The position numbers were made by a program, and so were the translations under genes. From Geobacter metallireducens GS-15 (GTDB taxonomy: Bacteria; Desulfobacterota; Desulfuromonadia; Geobacterales; Geobacteraceae): 32,000 bases of DNA. Below the pieces are notes generated by a model. The model made no database searches. It had not been told where the DNA came from and was given only the letters and a program-made list of their open reading frames with translations. Position 1 is the first letter of the stretch, and each line of letters opens with the position of its first letter. The DNA is taken from contig NC_007517.1 of assembly GCF_000012925.1 (NCBI RefSeq), positions 2,760,001 through 2,792,000 on the forward strand, written 5' to 3'. Positions 947 to 30,656 of the stretch are shown in pieces.

Positions 947-1648
947 ATGCCGAAGGAAAACCGTCTACCGCGGATACTCATAGTCGATGACGAACTGGCG
1001 ATACGGCGCTTCCTCTGCACCGCCCTCGATACCGGGGAGTTTTCCCTCCACCAGGCGGAAAACGGCCATACAGCGCTGGCGGCAGCGGTTGCGACGATGC
1101 CGGACGTGATCCTCCTCGACCTGGGGCTTCCGGATATGGACGGGGTTGAAGTCATCCGACGGATACGGGAGTGGTCCCAGGTGCCGATCATCGTCCTTTC
1201 CGTGCGGGAGCGTGAGGACGACAAGGTGGCTGCGCTGGATGCCGGGGCGGACGACTACCTGACCAAGCCATTCGGCGTCGCAGAGCTTGTGGCCCGGATT
1301 CGCGCGGCACTGCGGCGCGCCTTGCAACAGGTGCCGGAACCCATCTTCCGTTCCGGAGACCTGGAGGTGGACCTGGCGCGCCGGCGGGTAACGGTCGACG
1401 GCAGCGAGTCCCAGCTCACCCCCACCGAGTACGAACTGCTGCGCCTCCTGGTGGTCCATGCGGGAAAGGTCCTCACCCACAGCCAGATTCTCCGGCAGAT
1501 ATGGGGGGTCTCCCACCTCGAGCAACCCCACGTGCTGCGGGTGAACATCAGCAACCTGCGCCGCAAAATAGAAATGGACCCCTCCCGTCCGCGCCACATC
1601 CTCACCGAACCCGGAGTCGGCTACCGGCTCCGGAGCGACGGCAGTTGA
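947..1648 (+). CDS. kdpE: OmpR-family response regulator KdpE
   Basis: ATG 947 is preceded by GGGGAG. Receiver domain (ILIVDDE, LDLGLPDMDG, TKPF) plus winged-helix output (LTPTEYELLRLL, GVGYRL). It lies directly after kdpD. Confidence 0.85.
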   Translation: MPKENRLPRILIVDDELAIRRFLCTALDTGEFSLHQAENGHTALAAAVATMPDVILLDLGLPDMDGVEVIRRIREWSQVPIIVLSVREREDDKVAALDAGADDYLTKPFGVAELVARIRAALRRALQQVPEPIFRSGDLEVDLARRRVTVDGSESQLTPTEYELLRLLVVHAGKVLTHSQILRQIWGVSHLEQPHVLRVNISNLRRKIEMDPSRPRHILTEPGVGYRLRSDGS

Positions 1649-1675
1649 TTTTTCCCCGCCCCCTCCGTGCGTCTG

Positions 1676-3280
1676 CTATTTTTTCGCCGGCGCCTTCGAC
1701 TTCTGATGGGCCAGGTCGAACTGGAGCATCAGGTAGCCGTAATGGATGTCGTCGCCGCTCCCGGCGGCGTCGCGAAAGAACTTCCCGGTGAAGAAGTGGT
1801 CGTAACCGGCAACGAGCGAGAGGTTGCCGTTCACCGCATAGGTCAGGGTAAAATCGGTCTCCAGGCCGATGCTGCGGCTGAATCCCTCCTCCACGTGGTT
1901 GGCAAGGAAGTAGCGCCCCGTGGCGGAGAGGTTCAGTTCCTTCGTGAGGTCGATTCCCCACCCGATGGTGTAGATCTGGAGGCCGCTGGCATGGTGGTCG
2001 CCGACATCGTAACCGAAGCCGCCGATGACTTTCATGTCTCCGAACAGCGGCGTATCGTTGGTCGGATTGCTGAACTCCTTCCGGGACGACACAACCGTGG
2101 CCGCTTCTCCGTCGCCGGAACCGACGGCGTAGCTCAGGAAAAAGTGGCTGTGAAAGCCGGCCATGGAGACATCCATGCCCAGGTCCGCATGGCCGCCGTA
2201 GGCCTGGATGCTCTCGTTCCCGCCGGTGTTCGGATTGAAGAGGCGGCCGGTCTGGTAGACCGGCTCCACCTCAAGGGTTGCCGGCCCCAGCGCTGCCGTT
2301 CCCCGCACTCCCCAGGTGTTCCGGTGTTCGCCTGCGTGATGGTCCCCGGAGCCGGTATCCCGGAAACCGTACGCCTCGATGGCATTCCCTTCCGAAAAGG
2401 TCCACGTGGCGTACCCGCCCGCCAGATTCCCCTTCACCCCATCGGAGAAGGGAGTCGCATACCAGCCCCCCAGGAGGTCCACCGTCAATTGCTCCATGGG
2501 CTTCACCCGCAGCCTCAGCGCGTCGAACGTGAGGCCATCCATGAAGGCATCGCTCCCCAGGATAAAGGTGCTGCCGTACACGAATTCCTGACGGCCAACC
2601 TTGAGGGCCAACCGTTCGGAGTCCGGCACTCTCGCTTCCACAAACCCCTGATACAGGGAAAGCTTGCCGTGCTCCTGGTTCCCCCCCTTGTAGCCGAACC
2701 CCTGGCCTTCCGCATGGAAGTCGAGGTAATCGGTCGGATGCCAGTAGGCGTAGGGCTTTACCCGGTAGAGGAAGCGTCCCTCGCCGTGGCGGGGAGCGTA
2801 ACTGAAGTCGGGAAGCCGGAAGTTGCCGACCCCCTCTCCCCGCAGAAAACCGTTGACACCGATCTTGTACTCGAACGCCGGCACCTCGGGCTTGGCGAGG
2901 ATCGCCTCGATGGCCTCCCGCCGCGTCAGGTACCCCTCATACTTTGGCAACTCGTCCTTCAACGCCTCGTGAAGGGCCGCAATCCGGTCCAGATCTCCCC
3001 GGTCCACCGCGTCTTTTCCCTTCAGGTCGCACTGCCTGACGACCTTCTCCATGACGTAGAGGAGATAGTGCGCCAGTTCGCCTCGTGAAATGGGCTTCCC
3101 TTCCACCAGCACCGAATCCGGGAGCTTTTTTTCCGCGTCATACTTTTTTGCCAGTTCACCTATTTGCTTGCACGACCAGTGGCTGACCGTCACCTGTTCG
3201 GGAATTTCGTCGGCGGCGAAGGCAGGATTCCAGCAGAATGCATAGGCCGTCAGAGACAGGAAAAACAGGGTTCTTCTCAT
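1676..3280 (-). CDS. Outer-membrane beta-barrel protein (alginate-export/porin-like) with an SLH-like N-terminal module
   Basis: Internal ATG at 3280 (aa 147 of ORF 1676..3718) has SD AAAGGAAA. Signal peptide is MRRTLFFLSLTAYAFCWNPAFA/AD. The N-terminal segment SHWSCKQIGELAKKY...ISRGELAHYLLYV resembles an SLH motif and is followed by a charged helical linker. The rest shows alternating beta-strand patterns (LKVGRQEFVYGSTFILG, FDALRLRV). It starts 49 nt after the cbiO stop on the same strand. Confidence 0.6.
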   Translation of the reverse strand: MRRTLFFLSLTAYAFCWNPAFAADEIPEQVTVSHWSCKQIGELAKKYDAEKKLPDSVLVEGKPISRGELAHYLLYVMEKVVRQCDLKGKDAVDRGDLDRIAALHEALKDELPKYEGYLTRREAIEAILAKPEVPAFEYKIGVNGFLRGEGVGNFRLPDFSYAPRHGEGRFLYRVKPYAYWHPTDYLDFHAEGQGFGYKGGNQEHGKLSLYQGFVEARVPDSERLALKVGRQEFVYGSTFILGSDAFMDGLTFDALRLRVKPMEQLTVDLLGGWYATPFSDGVKGNLAGGYATWTFSEGNAIEAYGFRDTGSGDHHAGEHRNTWGVRGTAALGPATLEVEPVYQTGRLFNPNTGGNESIQAYGGHADLGMDVSMAGFHSHFFLSYAVGSGDGEAATVVSSRKEFSNPTNDTPLFGDMKVIGGFGYDVGDHHASGLQIYTIGWGIDLTKELNLSATGRYFLANHVEEGFSRSIGLETDFTLTYAVNGNLSLVAGYDHFFTGKFFRDAAGSGDDIHYGYLMLQFDLAHQKSKAPAKK

Positions 3281-3329
3281 CGGCGATTTCCTTTCCAGCT
3301 TATTAACCACTTTCCATAGGGGAGTGGCG

Positions 3330-4088
3330 CTATCGCCCCCCAGTGCCGCAGACCGGACACCCCTGCATGGAAAAGGGGGGCTCCAGGCGGCATGCCGCCA
3401 GGAGCTCGGCGTTGCGGAAAATCTCCCGGGGCGGGCCGTCGGCCGCCACCACGCCCTCCCTGAGGACGATGGTCCGCTCGCAGAGCTCCAGCACCATGTC
3501 CAGGTCGTGGCTCGTGAATATCTTCGTATGCCGGAACTCGCGGAGAAGCCCCATGAGCTGGCGCCGCGCAAAGGGGTCGAGCCCCGCCGTGGGCTCGTCC
3601 ATGACCAGGATATCCGGCGACATGGAGAGGACCGTGGCGATGGCGGCCCGCTTCTTCTCCCCCCCCGAGAGCCGGTAGGGAGGCTTGTCCCGCAGGTGCC
3701 CGGCGCCGACCCGGGCAAGGGATTCCGCCACCCGCCGCTCCACTTCCCCGGGAGGGAGCCCCAGGTTGAGGGGACCGAAGGCGACGTCCTCTCCCACCGT
3801 CGGCATGAAAAGCTGGTCGTCCGGGTCCTGGAAGACCATGCCCACGGTCCGGCGCACTTCGGCGAGGGTCGTGCGGACCACCGGGGTATCGCCGATCCGG
3901 ACCTCCCCCGCGGTTGGGGGGAGATAACCGTTAAGGTGGAGGAGGAGCGTCGATTTTCCGGCGCCGTTGGCGCCGATCACCGCCACCGATTCCCCGTGGT
4001 GGATGGTGAAGGAAACCCCCCGAAGGGCCTCGGTGCCGTCGGGGTATGAATGGCGGAGATCCTTGACCTCGACGATATGATGACTCAT
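3330..4088 (-). CDS. cbiO: ECF-type Ni/Co transporter ATPase (CbiO/NikO)
   Basis: Internal ATG at 4088 (aa 159 of ORF 3330..4562). Walker [13 protein letters not shown] signature LSGGEKKR, Walker B ILVMDEPT. The ATG overlaps the cbiQ stop (ATGA). Confidence 0.9.
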
Positions 4089-4897
4089 GGGAAGACTCCC
4101 GTTACCAGCACGCCGATCAGGTGCGGCACGTTGACGAAGCGCAGAAGCATGAAGAGGAGACACCACCCTGCCGTGAAGGCTAGCTCGCGCCGTCCGAAAG
4201 AGCACTCGCGCCGCACGTGGAATTCCCCCCGGAACCCCCGGGAAAGCATGGCCATGTGGATCCGCTCGGCCCGGTCCCAGGTGCGGAGAAGGAGGCTCCC
4301 CACCAGGGAGCCGTAGGCCTTGAGACCCATCCCCCGCCCGGCGAAGGAACGCAGCTCCCTGGCCCGGGACATCCGTATCCCCTCGTCCCCCAGGACGAAG
4401 ATATAGCGGTAGAGGAAGAGAAGCTGCACCACGAAGGCCCGGGGCACTCCGAACCGCTGGAGCGCCAGGCAGACCCCGGTAAAGCCGGTCACGGCCACCA
4501 GCACCAGGGCGGCCCCCACGGTGAGCGCGGCGCGAAGGATGATCGACAGAAACGACACCCATCCCCCGGACACCGCCAGGGAACCGAGGGCCAGCAACGG
4601 TTCCCGGTCGAACAGGGGATTGAAGAGACCCACCAGGGCGGCAAAGGGGAGGACCAGCAGGAGCTTCCGAGTCACGATCTCCGGAGGGAGCCCGCTGACG
4701 GCAACCATCGCCAGCGGAAAGATCGCAAAGGGGATGAGGCCCGAAATCTCGTAACGGCTGAAGGAAACCACCGTAATGATATACACGAGGGTGACGAGAA
4801 CCTTGGCCCGGGGGTCGAGCCGGTGGATGGACGAATCGCCGCCGGCCAGGAGGTCGATACGGTTCAGGTCGCGGAGTGCTGTTTCAATGCGTGCCAT
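4085..4897 (-). CDS. cbiQ: ECF transporter transmembrane T component (CbiQ/NikQ)
   Basis: 270-aa polytopic membrane protein (IHRLDPRAKV..., SRARELRSF). It lies between the cbiM-like and cbiO genes and has a 4-nt overlap with cbiO. Confidence 0.85.
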   Translation of the reverse strand: MARIETALRDLNRIDLLAGGDSSIHRLDPRAKVLVTLVYIITVVSFSRYEISGLIPFAIFPLAMVAVSGLPPEIVTRKLLLVLPFAALVGLFNPLFDREPLLALGSLAVSGGWVSFLSIILRAALTVGAALVLVAVTGFTGVCLALQRFGVPRAFVVQLLFLYRYIFVLGDEGIRMSRARELRSFAGRGMGLKAYGSLVGSLLLRTWDRAERIHMAMLSRGFRGEFHVRRECSFGRRELAFTAGWCLLFMLLRFVNVPHLIGVLVTGVFP

Positions 4898-22824: not shown

Positions 22825-24045
22825 CTACCGCGGGGGAAGGAACGGCTCCAGGAGAGCCGGATCAAGGGTGGTATCCGGTTTGACCGGAAATCCCGAAACT
22901 GGGTCACGGTCGGCCATCCCGATGGAAAGAATGATTGTGTTTGATTGACCGGAGGCCAGGAGACGGGGCCCCCATTGCAGGAACAGGACACGGTTGTTGG
23001 GGTGATTGAGGGGGACGCGGCTCCCCGGCGGGGCAAAGGAGCCGATCTTGTTGGAAAAATAGACGAGGTCAGGGGTTACGTTCCCCTTCCACTCGATGAA
23101 GTTGGCCATCCCACTGTAGTTATGCTCTTCGCCCGCGGCTTCATTGCCGTAATCGAAATAGCCGGCCCAGTGGTGCTCCTGGGGGTTGATCGTCTCCTCG
23201 TAGGGGACAAGGCGGTCCTTCACCCACCCCACATTGCCGATCGATGACCCATAATTTCCCACCCATGGCTCGTCACCGTAGACATAGTAGTAGCCGCCGG
23301 GATACTGCCCGACATTCGTAATCCGGATCGCCAGCGTGAAATAACGGGCTCCGGCCGTGAACCGGGCAGCCCGGTCGATACGGAACGGCAGACCGTCCAG
23401 TTCCACTTCGTGACTGCTCGTGATAACAAGCTCCTCGGACGTCTGCTTTGCCACCCTGCTATCAAGGAACCGCCACAACGACGGAGCAATGGTAGAGGAC
23501 GGGTTACTCCAGGGGCTTATCGATTCATTAACGTTACACCAGAGGTGAAACCAGCGGTTTCCGTCATAGAACGAGACGCCGGTATCGTTGAGGGTTTCGT
23601 TACCGGCCTGATTCAGATGATACGGCAATTCTCCGCCGACAAAAACTCCCCTTGTCTCCCTGCCGTCGCTGTCGAGATAACGGCTCAGACAGGTGAGAAA
23701 AATGGTTCCGTCGGCGAAATGTCCCTTCACATGGCCACTGCCATCGAAGCGGTACCATTCATGCTCCAGGCGCGTCGCGTCCGTTGCATAGCTGACGTCG
23801 CCCCGGAGAAAACGGAGAAGGGGTTGCGCCGGCAGCGCAAGAACAAGCCGGTTCTCGTCGCCGAGAACCAGATCATCCTTGATCTCCAGCAGGCCATTTC
23901 CCCCCTTGAGTACGTAGATCCCCTCGAAATGCCAGTAGGGACGAAACCGCACCATGCTCGTGCAAACCGCAAACACCACGACGGCCGCAGCACATGCGAT
24001 TCCGACACGGGACGAGAACAGGGAATGCAAAATTCGTTTTACCAT
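22825..24045 (-). CDS. Hypothetical membrane-anchored protein (406 aa), no recognisable domain
   Basis: It has a single N-terminal hydrophobic anchor (IACAAAVVVFAVC) followed by a probably periplasmic beta-rich body (GGYYYVYGDEPWVGNYG). The SD is weak, so the start is uncertain. Confidence 0.55.
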   Translation of the reverse strand: MVKRILHSLFSSRVGIACAAAVVVFAVCTSMVRFRPYWHFEGIYVLKGGNGLLEIKDDLVLGDENRLVLALPAQPLLRFLRGDVSYATDATRLEHEWYRFDGSGHVKGHFADGTIFLTCLSRYLDSDGRETRGVFVGGELPYHLNQAGNETLNDTGVSFYDGNRWFHLWCNVNESISPWSNPSSTIAPSLWRFLDSRVAKQTSEELVITSSHEVELDGLPFRIDRAARFTAGARYFTLAIRITNVGQYPGGYYYVYGDEPWVGNYGSSIGNVGWVKDRLVPYEETINPQEHHWAGYFDYGNEAAGEEHNYSGMANFIEWKGNVTPDLVYFSNKIGSFAPPGSRVPLNHPNNRVLFLQWGPRLLASGQSNTIILSIGMADRDPVSGFPVKPDTTLDPALLEPFLPPR

Positions 24046-24466: not shown

Positions 24467-26287
24467 ATGGCCCCGAAAGAGAGCCCAGCAACGAAGTCGC
24501 CGGGGAAAGTGCCGAATCTGCAAAGGTTCGCCCATTGGCTCCCGCTGGCGGTTCTGACGGTCGGCCTGCTCCTTACCTACGAACTGTGGAAGCATGAACA
24601 TCAGATCGTTGCCCGGGATCTCCGGGCGAATTTCGATTTTCTCGTGCAGGAAGATCTCACCCTCATAAAACAGCGCATGCAGGCGTACGAGCAGGTGCTG
24701 CGCGGGACGCGGGGATTGTTCACCGCTTCCGAGTCGGTGGAACGCCATGAGTTTCGCGACTACGTGACGGCTCTCGGCCTGGAAGAGTCCTACCGCGGCA
24801 TCCAGGGGGTGGGTTTTACGCAGATCGTACCGGCAGCGCGACTGCAGTCACATATCGAGTCCGTCAGGAAGGAAGGATTCCCCGATTACGCCATCTGGCC
24901 GGACAGGGAACAGGAGATCCATACCTCTATCATTTACCTGGAGCCGTTCTCGGGCCGCAATCTGCGTGCCTTCGGTTACGACATGTTTTCCGAGCAGGTG
25001 CGGCATGCCGCCATGGTACGGGCGCGCGACACCGGCACAGTTGCCCTGTCCGGCAAGGTGAGGCTTGTGCAGGAGACCGGGGAGCGGGAACAGGCGGGGG
25101 TTCTCAGTTATCTCCCTATTTATGCCAACGGCAAGCGCCTCGATTCCGTGCAGTCGCGCCGCTCGGCAATCATCGGGTGGGTTTACTCGCCATTTCGCAT
25201 GGACGACCTCATGGCCGGACTTTTCGGTGGTCGCGCCAACGAAATCGATATCGAGATCTACGACGGGGAGGAAATATCCGAAAAGACACTCTTGCACGAC
25301 TCTGACAAGATCCGCTTCGCCGGGGTCATGGAGGCCCCGCTGCTCGCCATCAAACGGATGGAAATAGCCGGCCGCATCTGGACCGTGGCGTTCCGCTCCC
25401 TACCCCCCTTTGAAAAGCGCCTGAAGAGCAACCAGGCAGGATACGTGGCCGTCACGGGGATCGTGCTGAGCCTGCTCCTGACGGCGATCACCCGGCTTCT
25501 GGCACGCGGACGGTCCCGTGCCATGGAAGCCAGGGAGGCACTGGCCATCAAGCAGAAGCAGCTTGAAGACCTGAATCTCTCCCTTGAACAACGGGTTGCC
25601 GAACGCACCGCGGAACTGGAGCGCCTGAACCGGGAGCTGGAGAGCTTCTGCTACTCCATCTCCCACGAAATACAGGCGCCGATTGCCCGGCTGGATGGTT
25701 TCAGCACGGCAATTGCCGAGTCCGCCAGGGATGCCGGCTCTAACGAGGTGCTCTATCTGGCGGAAAGGCTCGGGGTGGCAAGCCGGAAGTTGAGAGACGT
25801 CATTGACAGCCTGCTGGTTATCTATCGCCTTGGGAGCACCGAGATGGAGATGGTGCCGGTGGATCTCTCTCAGCTTTGCGGCCAGATATTTGACGAACTG
25901 CGGGAACATGAACGCACGATCAAGGTTACCATTGCCCCGGACGTGGTGGTGCAGGGTGATCACCGGATGCTTGAAACCTGCATTCGGCACCTTCTGGAGA
26001 ATGCAGTGAAATACAGCGCCAGGAATCCGGAAGCGGCAGTCGAGTTCGGGGAAATAATACAGACGGGGGAAGCGGTCTTTTTTGTAAGGGACAACGGTGT
26101 GGGGTTCGACATGGCATTTGCCGGCAAGCTCTTCGAGCCTTTCTGCCGCCTCCATTGCGAGTCCGAGTTCGAGGGGAGCGGCACGGGCCTTCCTACCGTG
26201 CAGCGGATCATCGAACGGCACGGCGGGAGAATCTGGGCCGAGGCCACCCCGGGAAATGGGGCAACGTTCTTCTTTACTCTCGGCTGA
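24467..26287 (+). CDS. CHASE-domain sensor histidine kinase (orphan)
   Basis: SD AGAGGA precedes the start. The order is TM, periplasmic CHASE-like region (GVGFTQIV..., YLEPFSGRNLRAFGYDM, RARDTGTVALSGKVRLVQE), second TM, coiled coil, H-box SISHEIQAPI, then the ATPase domain (RDNGVGFD, GTGLPTV). No adjacent regulator. Confidence 0.85.
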   Translation: MAPKESPATKSPGKVPNLQRFAHWLPLAVLTVGLLLTYELWKHEHQIVARDLRANFDFLVQEDLTLIKQRMQAYEQVLRGTRGLFTASESVERHEFRDYVTALGLEESYRGIQGVGFTQIVPAARLQSHIESVRKEGFPDYAIWPDREQEIHTSIIYLEPFSGRNLRAFGYDMFSEQVRHAAMVRARDTGTVALSGKVRLVQETGEREQAGVLSYLPIYANGKRLDSVQSRRSAIIGWVYSPFRMDDLMAGLFGGRANEIDIEIYDGEEISEKTLLHDSDKIRFAGVMEAPLLAIKRMEIAGRIWTVAFRSLPPFEKRLKSNQAGYVAVTGIVLSLLLTAITRLLARGRSRAMEAREALAIKQKQLEDLNLSLEQRVAERTAELERLNRELESFCYSISHEIQAPIARLDGFSTAIAESARDAGSNEVLYLAERLGVASRKLRDVIDSLLVIYRLGSTEMEMVPVDLSQLCGQIFDELREHERTIKVTIAPDVVVQGDHRMLETCIRHLLENAVKYSARNPEAAVEFGEIIQTGEAVFFVRDNGVGFDMAFAGKLFEPFCRLHCESEFEGSGTGLPTVQRIIERHGGRIWAEATPGNGATFFFTLG

Positions 26288-26309
26288 CGCGAACCACCAT
26301 ACAAACAGA

Positions 26310-26337
26310 GGCCGTCACCCCTTCACGGATGACGGCC
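26310..26337. terminator. Hairpin between convergent genes (kinase on plus, small-protein pair on minus)
   Basis: GGCCGTCA-N12-TGACGGCC is an 8-bp stem. The U-tail is weak on both strands (CTCTGTTTGT on the minus strand). Confidence 0.3.
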
Positions 26338-26372
26338 CCATTAATTCTGCGGCAGGCGGATTGCCGGGCTTT

Positions 26373-26606
26373 CTAGCGGCTCTTCACCTCGGCCCTTTCC
26401 CCGAAGCTCTCCTTAACCCCTTTGGCCATGCCGAGCATGGTGAGAACTGCCGGGACCAGCTGGGCCACGATGATCAGGGCGCAGAACCCGAGGAAAATCC
26501 ACACGAACACGCCGCTGTTGTCTTCCCGCGCTCCCGATGCCGCCAGGGCCGACGTTACGCTCCCCATTACCAGTGCCAGTGTGCCGGCTGCAGTTCTCGC
26601 TCTCAT
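26373..26606 (-). CDS. Small secreted/membrane protein, paralog 2 (77 aa)
   Basis: The ATG at 26606 lies 6 nt after AAGGAG. The sequence is MRARTAAGTLALVMGSVTSALA/ASGA..., followed by one TM helix and a charged tail. It is a paralog of the upstream gene. Confidence 0.6.
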   Translation of the reverse strand: MRARTAAGTLALVMGSVTSALAASGAREDNSGVFVWIFLGFCALIIVAQLVPAVLTMLGMAKGVKESFGERAEVKSR

Positions 26607-26668
26607 GGCCGTCTCCTTTCTCATCGTATTCGTATTGTGCCGGTCTCTGACCGGGTTGTTTCCGAAAC

Positions 26669-26887
26669 CTAGCGGGCACCTTCCTCTTCCTTGGCCGAGA
26701 AGAGCCCCTTCACCATGGAACCGAGCAGGACGATTGCCGGGATGGTCTGGAAGGCGACGACGGCGACGCCCAGGGCCAGGAACAGCGGGGCGAGGAATCC
26801 CCCTTCGTCGGCGGCTGCGCCGCTGGCGGCAAGGGCAGAAGAAGCGGTGGCTATCGTAACGATCAGGGCGTTGGCTATGGCTTTCAT
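26669..26887 (-). CDS. Small secreted/membrane protein, paralog 1 (72 aa)
   Basis: The ATG at 26887 is preceded by AAGGAGGA. The sequence is MKAIANALIVTIATASSALA/ASGA..., followed by a TM helix (FLAPLFLALGVAVVAFQTIPAIVLLG) and the tail KGLFSAKEEEGAR. Confidence 0.65.
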   Translation of the reverse strand: MKAIANALIVTIATASSALAASGAAADEGGFLAPLFLALGVAVVAFQTIPAIVLLGSMVKGLFSAKEEEGAR

Positions 26888-26937
26888 GGCATCCTCCTTG
26901 TTTTCCGGTGCTAACTGATTGCTTTTGTCTTTTACAT

Positions 26938-26953
26938 AGCATCGGGTATGCCA
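26938..26953 (-). promoter_or_regulatory. Sigma-54 (-24/-12) promoter for the small-protein pair
   Basis: The minus strand reads TGGCATACCCGATGCT, with GG and GC in the exact consensus register of TGGCAC-N5-TTGCW. The -12 element lies ~50 nt upstream of ATG 26887. Confidence 0.6.
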
Positions 26954-27046
26954 GCAGGATGAAAAAACTTTATTAATTTGTAACCCACTACAATAATTAA
27001 GGAATTATTTGTGGCCTGGGATTGAAAAGGTATTGCGGTCGAGAGT

Positions 27047-27071
27047 GTTTGTATAGGGGGGACATACAAAC
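27047..27071. promoter_or_regulatory. Inverted repeat GTTTGTAT-N9-ATACAAAC, candidate enhancer-binding-protein site
   Basis: Perfect 8-bp arms lie ~95-130 bp upstream of the -24 element, with an AT-rich (bendable) tract in between. Alternatively it is a second stem of the upstream gene's terminator. Confidence 0.3.
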
Positions 27072-27099
27072 GCGGGGGGATGAAACTCATCCTCCCGCG
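27071..27099 (-). terminator. Hairpin downstream of the L,D-transpeptidase gene
   Basis: 13-bp stem CGCGGGAGGATGA-GTT-TCATCCCCCCGCG on the minus strand (one A.C mismatch), followed by TTTGTATGT. Confidence 0.4.
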
Positions 27100-27215
27100 A
27101 AAATTTTACGTAACATACTGATATTACAGAATATTACCCATCGGTACCTGGTGCATATAAAAAGGATACGCCGCATGGACAAAAACAGCCGGCAACGATG
27201 ACGCCCCTGCGGAAA

Positions 27216-28604
27216 TCAGAACGAAACCCTTTCGGGTACCCCGTTCATCCTCTTCAGAACCTGTTGGACCTTGTTCCAGTCTATTCTCTCCTCGACGTGC
27301 TGCTCCTGCGCGATGCTCTTCACCTGTTCATCGAGATTCTCGTAGCGGTTGTAAATGTCCCGGTGCACTTCAAGGAACACCTGTCCCTCGGCAACCGTCA
27401 TCTTTACCGGCTCGTAAATAATCTCTCCGGTGGTCTCCTCTGTCACGGAATTGAAGAAATCCTCCATGAATTCGGGAAAAACCCTGATGCAGCCATGGCT
27501 GCTGAAACTGTAGACCGATTCGGGCGCGTTAGTGCTGTGGATAAGAATTCCTGGTATCGACGTTTTCAGGGCGTATTTCCCGAGAGGGTTTTTCTTCCCC
27601 GGCGGGACAATGGTTTTCACCTCCTTCCCCCGCTCCTTCATCTCCTTCCGGATGGAGGGGGGGACACGCCAGGTGGGATCCTTCACCTTTCCGATGATCC
27701 GAAAATTGCCGGTCGGCGTATGCCAGTCGCGCTTTTCGGGATCATTTACCGGTTTCGGTTTTCCCACGGCGACAGAAAGCACCCGGTCAACCTCTCCGTT
27801 ACGGAAATAGTAGAGAGTGCGATCAGGGATGTTTATGACAATGCCGTCGTCGATCTGGCGGGGGACAATCCGGCGGGTGTCGACACGCAGCACCTGTCCG
27901 GCCCTGAGGGGTTTCTGGGGGTCGATCCGGTTGAGCTGCGCCAGCCGCCGCCAGCTGACCCCGAATTTAGCGCCGATATAGCGCAGGCTTTCACCCTTGC
28001 CAACAGTGTAGGAGAATCTCTTGCCGATGATCACAGAAGACCGTGGTCTGGCGGTTTCGGTCGCTTCGGCCGGTTCCCCCCTCTCCACGGAGCGCATTTC
28101 ACCGGGCTGCGGTTCGGCCGGCTCAACAGGCGCAGGCGCCGATTGGGGATGGAGATGCTCGGTGGGAGGGGCCATAGCCGGGCTTGCAGGAGCAGGGGGG
28201 GGCAAGGGGGAGACGCTGTCCATCGCCGGAGGGGGGAGTTGGTCATCCCAATCAGCGGTCTGCTTCGACACCGCGTCCCGGCTCGACGGCTGTGGTTCGT
28301 CCTTTTCTGCCTGGGCCAGCTCCAGTCGCTCAGAGAGAAGCTTTGCCTTGCCGGCGGCCAGATCGAACAGAACCTCTGCCCGCTTGCGTTCACCCCTGGC
28401 CAGGTGGGATTCCGCCCGGGCCACGGTCTCCTCGATGTTCCAGTACTCCTGGCGCGAAATACTGGAGGCAGACCGCTGCCGCAGCCCGGAAAGCTCCGTC
28501 AATGCCCGTTTTTTAGCAGTGGGAGGCGTCGAACATCCCGCAAAGAGAACTGCCGCCGCCAGAAAGGAAACCGTACCTCCCATCCCGACGCCGACCCGGC
28601 ACAT
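27216..28604 (-). CDS. LysM-domain L,D-transpeptidase (YkuD family) lipoprotein
   Basis: Lipobox is AVLFAGC. A coiled region and a Pro-rich linker precede LysM (YTVGKGESLRYIGAKFGVSWRRLAQLN) and the YkuD catalytic domain with IHSTN...SHGCIRV. The start is uncertain (ATG 28604 chosen; 28583, 28655 and 28661 are possible). Confidence 0.8.
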   Translation of the reverse strand: MCRVGVGMGGTVSFLAAAVLFAGCSTPPTAKKRALTELSGLRQRSASSISRQEYWNIEETVARAESHLARGERKRAEVLFDLAAGKAKLLSERLELAQAEKDEPQPSSRDAVSKQTADWDDQLPPPAMDSVSPLPPPAPASPAMAPPTEHLHPQSAPAPVEPAEPQPGEMRSVERGEPAEATETARPRSSVIIGKRFSYTVGKGESLRYIGAKFGVSWRRLAQLNRIDPQKPLRAGQVLRVDTRRIVPRQIDDGIVINIPDRTLYYFRNGEVDRVLSVAVGKPKPVNDPEKRDWHTPTGNFRIIGKVKDPTWRVPPSIRKEMKERGKEVKTIVPPGKKNPLGKYALKTSIPGILIHSTNAPESVYSFSSHGCIRVFPEFMEDFFNSVTEETTGEIIYEPVKMTVAEGQVFLEVHRDIYNRYENLDEQVKSIAQEQHVEERIDWNKVQQVLKRMNGVPERVSF

Positions 28605-30579: not shown

Positions 30580-30595
30580 TGGTATGCAAGTTGCT
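30580..30595 (+). promoter_or_regulatory. Sigma-54 (-24/-12) promoter for the MFS transporter
   Basis: TGGTATGCAAGTTGCT has GG and TTGC in the exact consensus register. It lies ~60 nt upstream of ATG 30657 in an AT-rich leader. Confidence 0.6.
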
Positions 30596-30656
30596 GAAGG
30601 AGAGATGTATGAAAAATCGTTAAATGTCGCGAACGTCATAAAAGGAGGTATCAACC

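Follow-up and report, generated by a model that had tools for sequence, protein, structure and literature searches.

A predicted sigma-54-dependent pair of paralogous small-protein genes in Geobacter metallireducens with relatives in cbcBA operons

The 32,000-nucleotide (nt) stretch of Geobacter metallireducens GS-15 DNA analyzed here (contig NC_007517.1, positions 2,760,001 to 2,792,000 of the forward strand; called the window in the following, with positions counted from its first letter) contains two adjacent small genes on its minus strand. Their products of 72 and 77 amino acids (aa) are referred to as A (GSU3409-like) and B (GSU3410 family), respectively, and the receiver-like protein encoded together with their relatives in other loci is called R. 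Both open reading frames (ORFs), which had been proposed in an initial annotation made from the sequence alone, are present at the positions given there (Table 1) and are preceded by strong Shine-Dalgarno (SD) sequences, namely AAGGAGGA-N5-ATG for A, with the SD motif AGGAGG at 26897-26892, and AAGGAG-N6-ATG for B. The spacing between the two genes amounts to 62 nt, and a -24/-12 promoter begins 66 nt before A. A longer reading of 189 aa (26373-26942) was rejected as an open-frame artefact, as homologues begin at an internal MRAR, which has its own SD.

A is 100% identical to G. metallireducens GeomeDRAFT_1058, and B is 100% identical to ABB32686.1/GeomeDRAFT_1059 and 79% identical to GSU3410 of Geobacter sulfurreducens. 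A BLASTP comparison of A with B yielded 34% identity with an E-value of 7e-11. The gapless alignment with an offset of two residues, from which paralogy had originally been deduced, contains 21 identities instead of the 19 reported, a number that was reached by none of 5000 shuffles; the paralogy therefore stands, while the count had to be corrected. The blocks SALAASGA, Q-x-x-P-A and M-x-K-G are common to both proteins, as had been described. Ratios of nonsynonymous to synonymous substitutions (dN/dS), calculated against orthologues and paralogues, were 0.13-0.46 for A and 0.13-0.34 for B. With values of 0.13-0.46 across both genes, A and B are both translated genes. They are real paralogous coding genes under purifying selection.

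The -24/-12 element TGGCATACCCGATGCT at 26953-26938 is the single match to the pattern TGGCAYN6TGCW in the 32-kb window, compared to 0.12 matches expected by chance. As at least one match was also found in 11 of 100 shuffles, the significance of this hit within the window is modest. The element is TGGCAC-N5-TTGCW-like with its GG and GC doublets exactly 10 nt apart, and the leader from the predicted transcription start to the ATG of A comprises approximately 40 nt. A sigma-70-like promoter was not found. The decisive evidence for the identification of the promoter comes from related loci, because nearly every related cluster has the element ahead of its first small ORF. For this comparison 40 genome loci (here given L numbers) and contigs with individual paralogues were used, of which 44 clusters entered the promoter count. 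Of these 44 clusters, 36 contain a TGG[CT]A-N7-TGC element at a distance of 57-78 nt upstream of the first small ORF, at a background frequency of 0.094 per kb per strand, and six more clusters contain close variants of it (AGGCAC.., TGGCCC.., CGGCAT..). In the two exceptions, B directly follows a receiver gene. Clusters in which A is followed by B behind an own sigma-54 promoter were also found in L005, L007, L010-L013 and L019. The initially claimed sigma-54 promoter is thus borne out by its family-wide conservation together with the published data on the G. sulfurreducens orthologue described below, and the suggested check in related genomes revealed that both the gene pair and the promoter are conserved across the loci compared. 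Taken together, the sequence comparisons support sigma-54 control of the A-B pair.

Upstream of the promoter, the 8+8 inverted repeat that had been noticed at enhancer distance is indeed present and represents a conserved enhancer-like site. Its arms are located at 27047-27054 and 27064-27071, with the 17-bp core GTAT-N9-ATAC at 27051-27067, and the palindrome begins 114 nt upstream of the TGG of the -24 element. The core TGTAT-N9-ATACA did not occur in any of 100 shuffles. Of 36 clusters, 32 contain GTAT-N9-ATAC at a distance of 102-127 nt upstream of the -24 element. These distances group near 103, 114 and 125 nt, i.e., approximately one helical turn apart, and in 12 of the 36 clusters the motif is present once more, 204-231 nt upstream. 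Stand-alone pairs, cbcBA operons and single B genes all share the half-sites (C)TGTAT and ATACA. Therefore, these promoters are probably served by the same or very similar activators.

Between promoter and palindrome, the previously noted AT-rich tract is present at approximately 27010-26960. Based on its sequence and position it may serve DNA bending, and a second, weaker IHF-like site, ATTGTAGTGGGTTAC at 26994-26980, lies inside it. A candidate IHF site further upstream (Table 1) matches the consensus given in PMC7962754, and a similar ..TCAGnnnGTTAC motif recurs at the corresponding position in related loci. Sequence conservation hence places a candidate upstream activating sequence (UAS) approximately 100-150 nt away from the promoter with a bending site in between. 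The same layout of palindrome and promoter is found even in the distant loci L050 and L054.

Table 1. Genes and predicted regulatory features of the A-B locus, in window coordinates.
Feature	Position	Strand	Remarks
A-type small protein gene	26669..26887	-	72 aa; GSU3409-like
B-type small protein gene	26373..26606	-	77 aa; GSU3410 family
Sigma-54 -24/-12 element TGGCATACCCGATGCT	26938..26953	-	predicted transcription start ~26927-26928
AT-rich tract	26960..27010	-	between palindrome and promoter; position conserved in paralogous loci
Candidate enhancer (UAS), perfect 8+8 palindrome GTTTGTAT-N9-ATACAAAC	27047..27071	.	conserved across clusters
Candidate IHF site TATCAGTATGTTA (WATCARNNNNTTR)	27111..27123	-	exact consensus match; between the two palindromes
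Putative degenerate distal palindrome GTATCCTTTTTATATGC	27153..27169	-	one half-site mismatch; 216 nt upstream of -24 TGG; weak
13-bp hairpin, one mismatch	27071..27099	-	abuts palindrome
Intercistronic 6-bp stem CCGGTC-AGA-GACCGG	26640..26654	-	significance doubtful
Intrinsic-terminator-like hairpin, 13 bp, then TGTTTGT	26308..26339	-	ends A-B transcript

Two hairpins were also considered as regulatory elements. The hairpin at 27071-27099 was rejected as enhancer, since it is absent from paralogous and orthologous promoters with a different upstream gene; it probably serves as terminator for the LysM/YkuD gene located upstream. As it directly abuts the palindrome, read-through or hairpin formation at this site could affect activator binding. 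The stem between the two genes exists as reported, but three bases off from the position initially given, and its proposed significance did not hold: it folds no better than shuffles (folding z = -0.27) and its conservation is limited to the G. metallireducens clade, so that it was discarded as regulatory RNA element. A search of positions 26200-27300 for known RNA families yielded no match. The start of the leader (TATGTAAAAGACAAAAGCA, 26925-26905) is conserved in L007, L033, L043 and L047 beyond what is needed for the promoter and could represent a post-transcriptional site. In a csrA mutant, the levels of GSU3409, GSU3410 and GSU0597 were reported to fall.

The orthologous pair of the window A-B genes in G. 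sulfurreducens is GSU3409-GSU3410. For this pair a PromScan-predicted RpoN promoter and a 3.31-fold upregulation of GSU3410 on RpoN overexpression have been described (Leang, 2009), and among 14 enhancer-binding proteins examined, Grr1 (EBP6) was the only one to bind the GSU3409 promoter (Ueki and Lovley, 2010). Regulation of the orthologous pair, i.e., the sigma-54 promoter and the binding of one activator, is therefore already published and not new. The cbcBA operon of the same organism starts with GSU0597, GSU0596 and GSU3489, has a sigma-54 promoter and depends on BccR. According to our sequence comparison, GSU0597 is A-type and GSU3489 is B-type. Published expression data link the two loci: in the presence of cobalt, GSU3410, GSU3489, GSU0919, cbcA and cbcB are all upregulated with log2 values of 3.35-3.70, and in a gsu1771 mutant GSU3409/3410 are counter-regulated as a block with GSU0597/0596/3489. 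The small-protein genes are also induced on Fe(0).

Like the window pair, GSU3409-GSU3410 encode A (74 aa) followed by B (76 aa). The promoter (TGGCACGGTCACTGCT, 69 nt ahead of the ATG) and the palindrome (GTATACCCACCCCATAC, at a distance of 114 nt) are the same as in the window, and so is the conserved leader start. The flanking genes differ, with a beta-eliminating lyase and UvrD in G. sulfurreducens and LysM/YkuD and the CHASE kinase in the window. Unlike G. sulfurreducens with this comparison locus, G. metallireducens has a second copy of approximately 97% identity. In this second A-B pair (L005; ABB33706.1), which is flanked by OmpA and Usp genes, B is 97% identical to the window protein and the 62-nt spacer between A and B is identical, which suggests a recent duplication or gene conversion. 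The head of the cbcBA (Cbc5) operon, GSU0597-GSU0596-GSU3489, resembles the window pair in its sigma-54 promoter 63 nt before the first ORF, in the palindrome at 114 nt and in its co-regulation with GSU3409/3410. In contrast to the operon head, the window pair has neither a receiver-like gene between A and B nor downstream cytochrome genes, nor does a gene for a partner kinase or an enhancer-binding protein lie next to it.

Regarding the proteins, both A and B contain predicted Sec n-, h- and c-regions and a predicted signal peptide ending with ALA/AS (the slash marks the predicted cleavage point). In A this is followed by the periplasmic tip SGAAADEGG, one transmembrane (TM) helix with Q47-x-x-P50 and a charged tail, and in B by the tip ASGAREDNSG and the TM helix FVWIFLGFCALIIVAQLVPAVL. 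A conservation profile of 44 distinct B-type and 29 distinct A-type sequences gathered from the loci revealed that the N-terminal hydrophobic stretch (h-region) is free to vary, while the AxA site, the polar tip and the TM helix are nearly fixed. The mature part of B is at least 90% conserved among the 44 B-type sequences. The family helix reads FVWIFLGFCALIxVAQLxPAV, with Q, P and the following K invariant in both types. A variable h-region combined with a fixed AxA site and TM helix would be expected if a cleavable Sec signal peptide precedes a functional TM helix of type I, and A and B may be cleaved accordingly. An AlphaFold2 (AF2) monomer model of B contains helices at 3-24 and 33-74 with the polar tip in between, albeit at low confidence (mean predicted local distance difference test, pLDDT, 69; predicted template modeling score, pTM, 0.38). 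The initial reading of both products as signal-peptide/TM proteins agrees with the variable h-region, the conserved AxA site and TM helix and the two AF2 helices. As basis for a fold search the model was dismissed, since its two low-confidence helices leave nothing to search with.

The statement that the proteins belong to no nameable family was correct insofar as no curated family matches: neither A nor B gave a Pfam or NCBIfam match beyond noise. It did not hold with respect to an entirely unknown family, as B is a member and A belongs to the A-type sister group of the "hypothetical protein GSU3410" family, which is present in all six Geobacter genomes compared by Butler et al. (2010; family 43). 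B and A scored 130 and 90 bits, respectively, with the family hidden Markov model (HMM), and both display the family features, i.e., 70-85 aa, a signal-peptide-like N-terminus, AxA, a short polar tip and Q-x-x-P followed by K-G. Throughout published accounts the small proteins are termed hypothetical. Searches for A and B yielded no match in PADLOC, weak matches to families of unknown function alone in PHROGs, without a holin or other annotated phage family, and chance-level matches to MotA alone among PDB sequences (E approximately 3). UniProt names Q746V8 (GSU3410) "Holin". This label, and with it a phage origin, was rejected, as it finds no support in PHROGs, PADLOC or the Pfam holin models and the neighbors in the window are LysM/YkuD and a kinase. 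A profile search against 1.84 billion representatives resulted in 609 clusters at an E-value of 1e-3 or below, almost all of them with lengths of 60-100 aa. The named members belong to the Geobacterales or Desulfuromonadales, with one Syntrophales metagenome-assembled genome (MAG) in addition.

Across the loci compared, the small genes recur in a defined arrangement. In approximately 20 loci the order is kinase and enhancer-binding protein, A, R, B, CbcA, CbcB and a further cytochrome. Oryzomonas contains A-B-CbcA without R, A-R-B without cbcBA is present in L014, L016, L017, L036, L050 and L052, and in the Syntrophales MAG (L054) A-R-B precedes an NrfCD-type cytochrome/FeS complex behind the same promoter layout. 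Single B genes with their own promoter and palindrome follow a gene for a CbcL-like cytochrome c/b561 fusion (L028, L033), whereas others are flanked by TPR and threonine-synthase genes or preceded by YkuD and a rhomboid protease. Two clusters of the profile search are R-B fusions of 219-220 aa, one of them with seven members from independent sources. In these fusions the signal-peptide-like segment is kept as an internal helix, and on the contig of the seven-member cluster an A gene and the same palindrome/IHF/sigma-54 layout precede the fusion gene. R resembles the receivers of the NtrC family. It has Gly at the position of the phospho-acceptor Asp57 of CheY (L008, 5535-5927, GSU0596, and homologues in 20 loci) and is therefore a pseudo-receiver; BccR keeps the Asp. 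These comparisons argue for A-R-B as the ancestral unit, of which the window pair is a stand-alone A-B derivative. As all copies share the promoter and enhancer layout, they form one regulon.

Two further observations concern relatives of these genes. In four related loci (L029-L032, ~1155-4201) the order is LysM/YkuD, rhomboid protease and a single B gene, compared to LysM/YkuD, A, B in the window. A rhomboid beside a single-pass protein with a helix-breaking Q-x-x-P could represent a protease-substrate pair. In some cbcBA operons (L020, L021, L022, L026, ~4250-4520), B is followed by a third paralogue of 78-83 aa (..PPEDLIGIVFWIFVAYCAIIIVPHG..), which is more divergent.

Concerning the neighborhood of the window pair, the same order of LysM/YkuD, A, B, convergent CHASE kinase, a 406-aa protein and PGI is found in a public G. 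metallireducens contig (L001). The kinase had been put forward as a possible signaling partner of the small proteins. This link could not be upheld, since the kinase is not a conserved neighbor and follows the pair only in the lineage of G. metallireducens and G. hydrogenophilus; orthologous and paralogous pairs adjoin UvrD, OmpA/Usp or other genes. No cytochrome genes adjoin the window pair; only its paralogues lie in cbcBA operons. The 406-aa ORF (22825-24045, minus strand) downstream of the kinase is without a recorded Pfam match in the matching contig. Elsewhere in the window, a second sigma-54-like element (TGGTATGCAAGTTGCT, 30580-30595, plus strand) precedes an SD and ATG near 30651 by approximately 55 nt. 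It is not accompanied by a GTAT-N9-ATAC palindrome.

Taken together, A and B would be expressed as a bicistronic operon from a sigma-54 promoter that requires an enhancer-binding protein of the NtrC type. This activator would bind the GTAT-N9-ATAC palindrome approximately 114 nt upstream, with IHF-type bending of the DNA in between. Both proteins would be made with a Sec signal peptide that is cleaved after ALA, resulting in mature single-pass proteins of approximately 50-55 residues with the N-terminus outside and the C-terminus inside of the inner membrane and with an invariant Gln and Pro in the middle of the membrane helix. In the Desulfuromonadia, the A-R-B module opens sigma-54-controlled operons for quinol:cytochrome oxidoreductases, cbcBA and others. 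A and B may associate through the Gln/Pro helix, and they may act as membrane partners of the pseudo-receiver and the sensor kinase, exerting feedback on the regulon rather than serving as catalytic parts. Considered as a whole, i.e., as a sigma-54 A-B operon that is a stand-alone copy of the A-R-B module with a feedback role at the membrane, we regard this explanation as somewhat probable. Within it we consider secure that A-B is a sigma-54, activator-dependent operon, a derivative of A-R-B and a member of a regulon including cbcBA. With respect to function, a membrane accessory or feedback element of a BccR/Grr1-type regulon is our best guess. A role in feedback or sensing is suggested by the link to the pseudo-receiver (including the fusions), by the neighboring kinase and activator genes, and by the occurrence of the module ahead of different complexes or alone. 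More specifically, A, B and the Asp-less R might form a hitherto undescribed device, anchored in the membrane, that provides feedback or sensing to sigma-54 two-component systems of the NtrC type, and in which the invariant Gln/Pro helices tether R or contact the kinase and thereby set the activity of BccR/Grr1, with stand-alone A-B pairs tuning the dose. Such two-component systems would switch Desulfuromonadia between quinol oxidoreductases as the redox potential falls. We regard this more detailed proposal as less probable than not.

Several points weigh against this explanation. The experimental support stems from the G. sulfurreducens orthologue, with the G. metallireducens locus known from its sequence. 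Grr1 is named only via the citation of an unpublished manuscript, and the activator may be BccR (GSU0598), Grr1 or both. Next to the window pair itself there is neither an R gene nor a kinase partner nor cbc genes, and it is homology and the common promoter architecture that connect the pair to the module. From the R-B fusions it follows that the first hydrophobic segment may remain uncleaved as a TM helix, which argues against an obligatory cleavage. The feedback role is proposed by analogy, and the AF2 model is of low confidence (see above).

Single-helix subunits are common in respiratory complexes. A and B might accordingly be small subunits with a structural or assembly function in inner-membrane quinol:cytochrome c oxidoreductases, with the stand-alone pairs as extra copies. 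This would be in line with the presence of A and B paralogues inside cbcBA operons in approximately 20 loci, with the single B genes following the CbcL-like cytochrome c/b561 fusion in L028 and L033 and with the joint induction of the pair and cbcA/cbcB, and one paper terms Cbc5 a pentasubunit complex. However, the module precedes unrelated types of complexes, the b-type CbcBA and the NrfCD-type complex of L054, and is also present without such a complex nearby. Moreover, a receiver-like domain, which does not belong to the respiratory machinery, is always included in the module or fused to it, and the deletion of cbcBA was complemented by cbcB and cbcA alone under the native promoter. We consider a role as subunits rather unlikely.

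Membrane or energy stress effectors that function like PspB/PspC/PspG under several sigma-54 activators would also be small bitopic membrane proteins from a sigma-54-dependent operon. Induction by cobalt stress and on Fe(0) fits such a role, as do the several copies with a near-identical mature part, which suggest one common activity with differing regulation. On the other hand, no match to PspB, PspC, PspG or any other Pfam/NCBIfam model was obtained (the Psp models were not hit even at E-values up to 10), pspA or pspF genes are absent from the vicinity of all loci compared, and the shared palindrome points to one type of activator instead of many, all of which makes this alternative improbable. 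Even less can be said for membrane-damaging peptides, i.e., holin-like proteins, toxins or a two-peptide bacteriocin. Besides the "Holin" entry in UniProt, it is the small size, the hydrophobicity and the pairing of the proteins that speak for them; the database searches described above stand against a phage protein, lysin, immunity, transporter or phage genes are not among the conserved neighbors, and the genes, which are located on the chromosome in multiple copies, show strong conservation and form part of respiratory operons. We regard this possibility as very improbable. Neither envelope stress nor a two-component membrane-active peptide, both offered as ideas in the initial annotation, thus gained specific support, and the context points instead to a regulon of sigma-54 two-component systems and quinol oxidoreductases (cbcBA).

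The proposed feedback function has parallels among known small membrane proteins. PspB, PspC and PspG are small inner-membrane proteins encoded in sigma-54, activator-dependent operons, and two of them, PspB and PspC, exert feedback on the activator that controls them. A and B have no sequence similarity to them, differ in topology by the predicted cleavable signal peptide and lack PspA and PspF partners; the likeness concerns a possible mode of action and not membership. Proteins of the MgrB, SafA and MzrA type have less than 100 aa, are induced by a two-component system and act back on a membrane kinase. Similar to these modulators, the A-R-B module is encoded beside a kinase and an activator and includes a pseudo-receiver. 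Unlike them, A and B are a paralogous pair with predicted signal peptides, and no homology was found. The gp8 procoat of phage M13 consists of a signal peptide that is cleaved off, a short acidic tip in the periplasm, a single TM helix and a charged tail in the cytoplasm; its mature form has approximately 50 aa. The predicted layout and mature size of A and B match this arrangement. In contrast to gp8, A and B have no match to it in PHROGs and no phage context, and their tail is of mixed charge instead of basic, so that the analogy is limited to membrane insertion.

The enhancer motif with its helical phasing, the A-R-B module, the R-B fusions and the Asp-less receiver appear to be undescribed in the searchable literature. 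The A-B pair of the window and its relatives are copies of a little-studied module that heads operons for low-potential respiration in Geobacter. The small proteins are the first products of sigma-54 operons which bring in CbcBA and similar complexes, and they exist in several co-regulated copies. If A and B act in signaling, they would offer a handle on how the redox potential is sensed. Should they be accessory subunits instead, the assumed composition of these complexes would have to be revised. The conserved GTAT-N9-ATAC site also allows the regulon to be defined easily in any genome of Geobacter.

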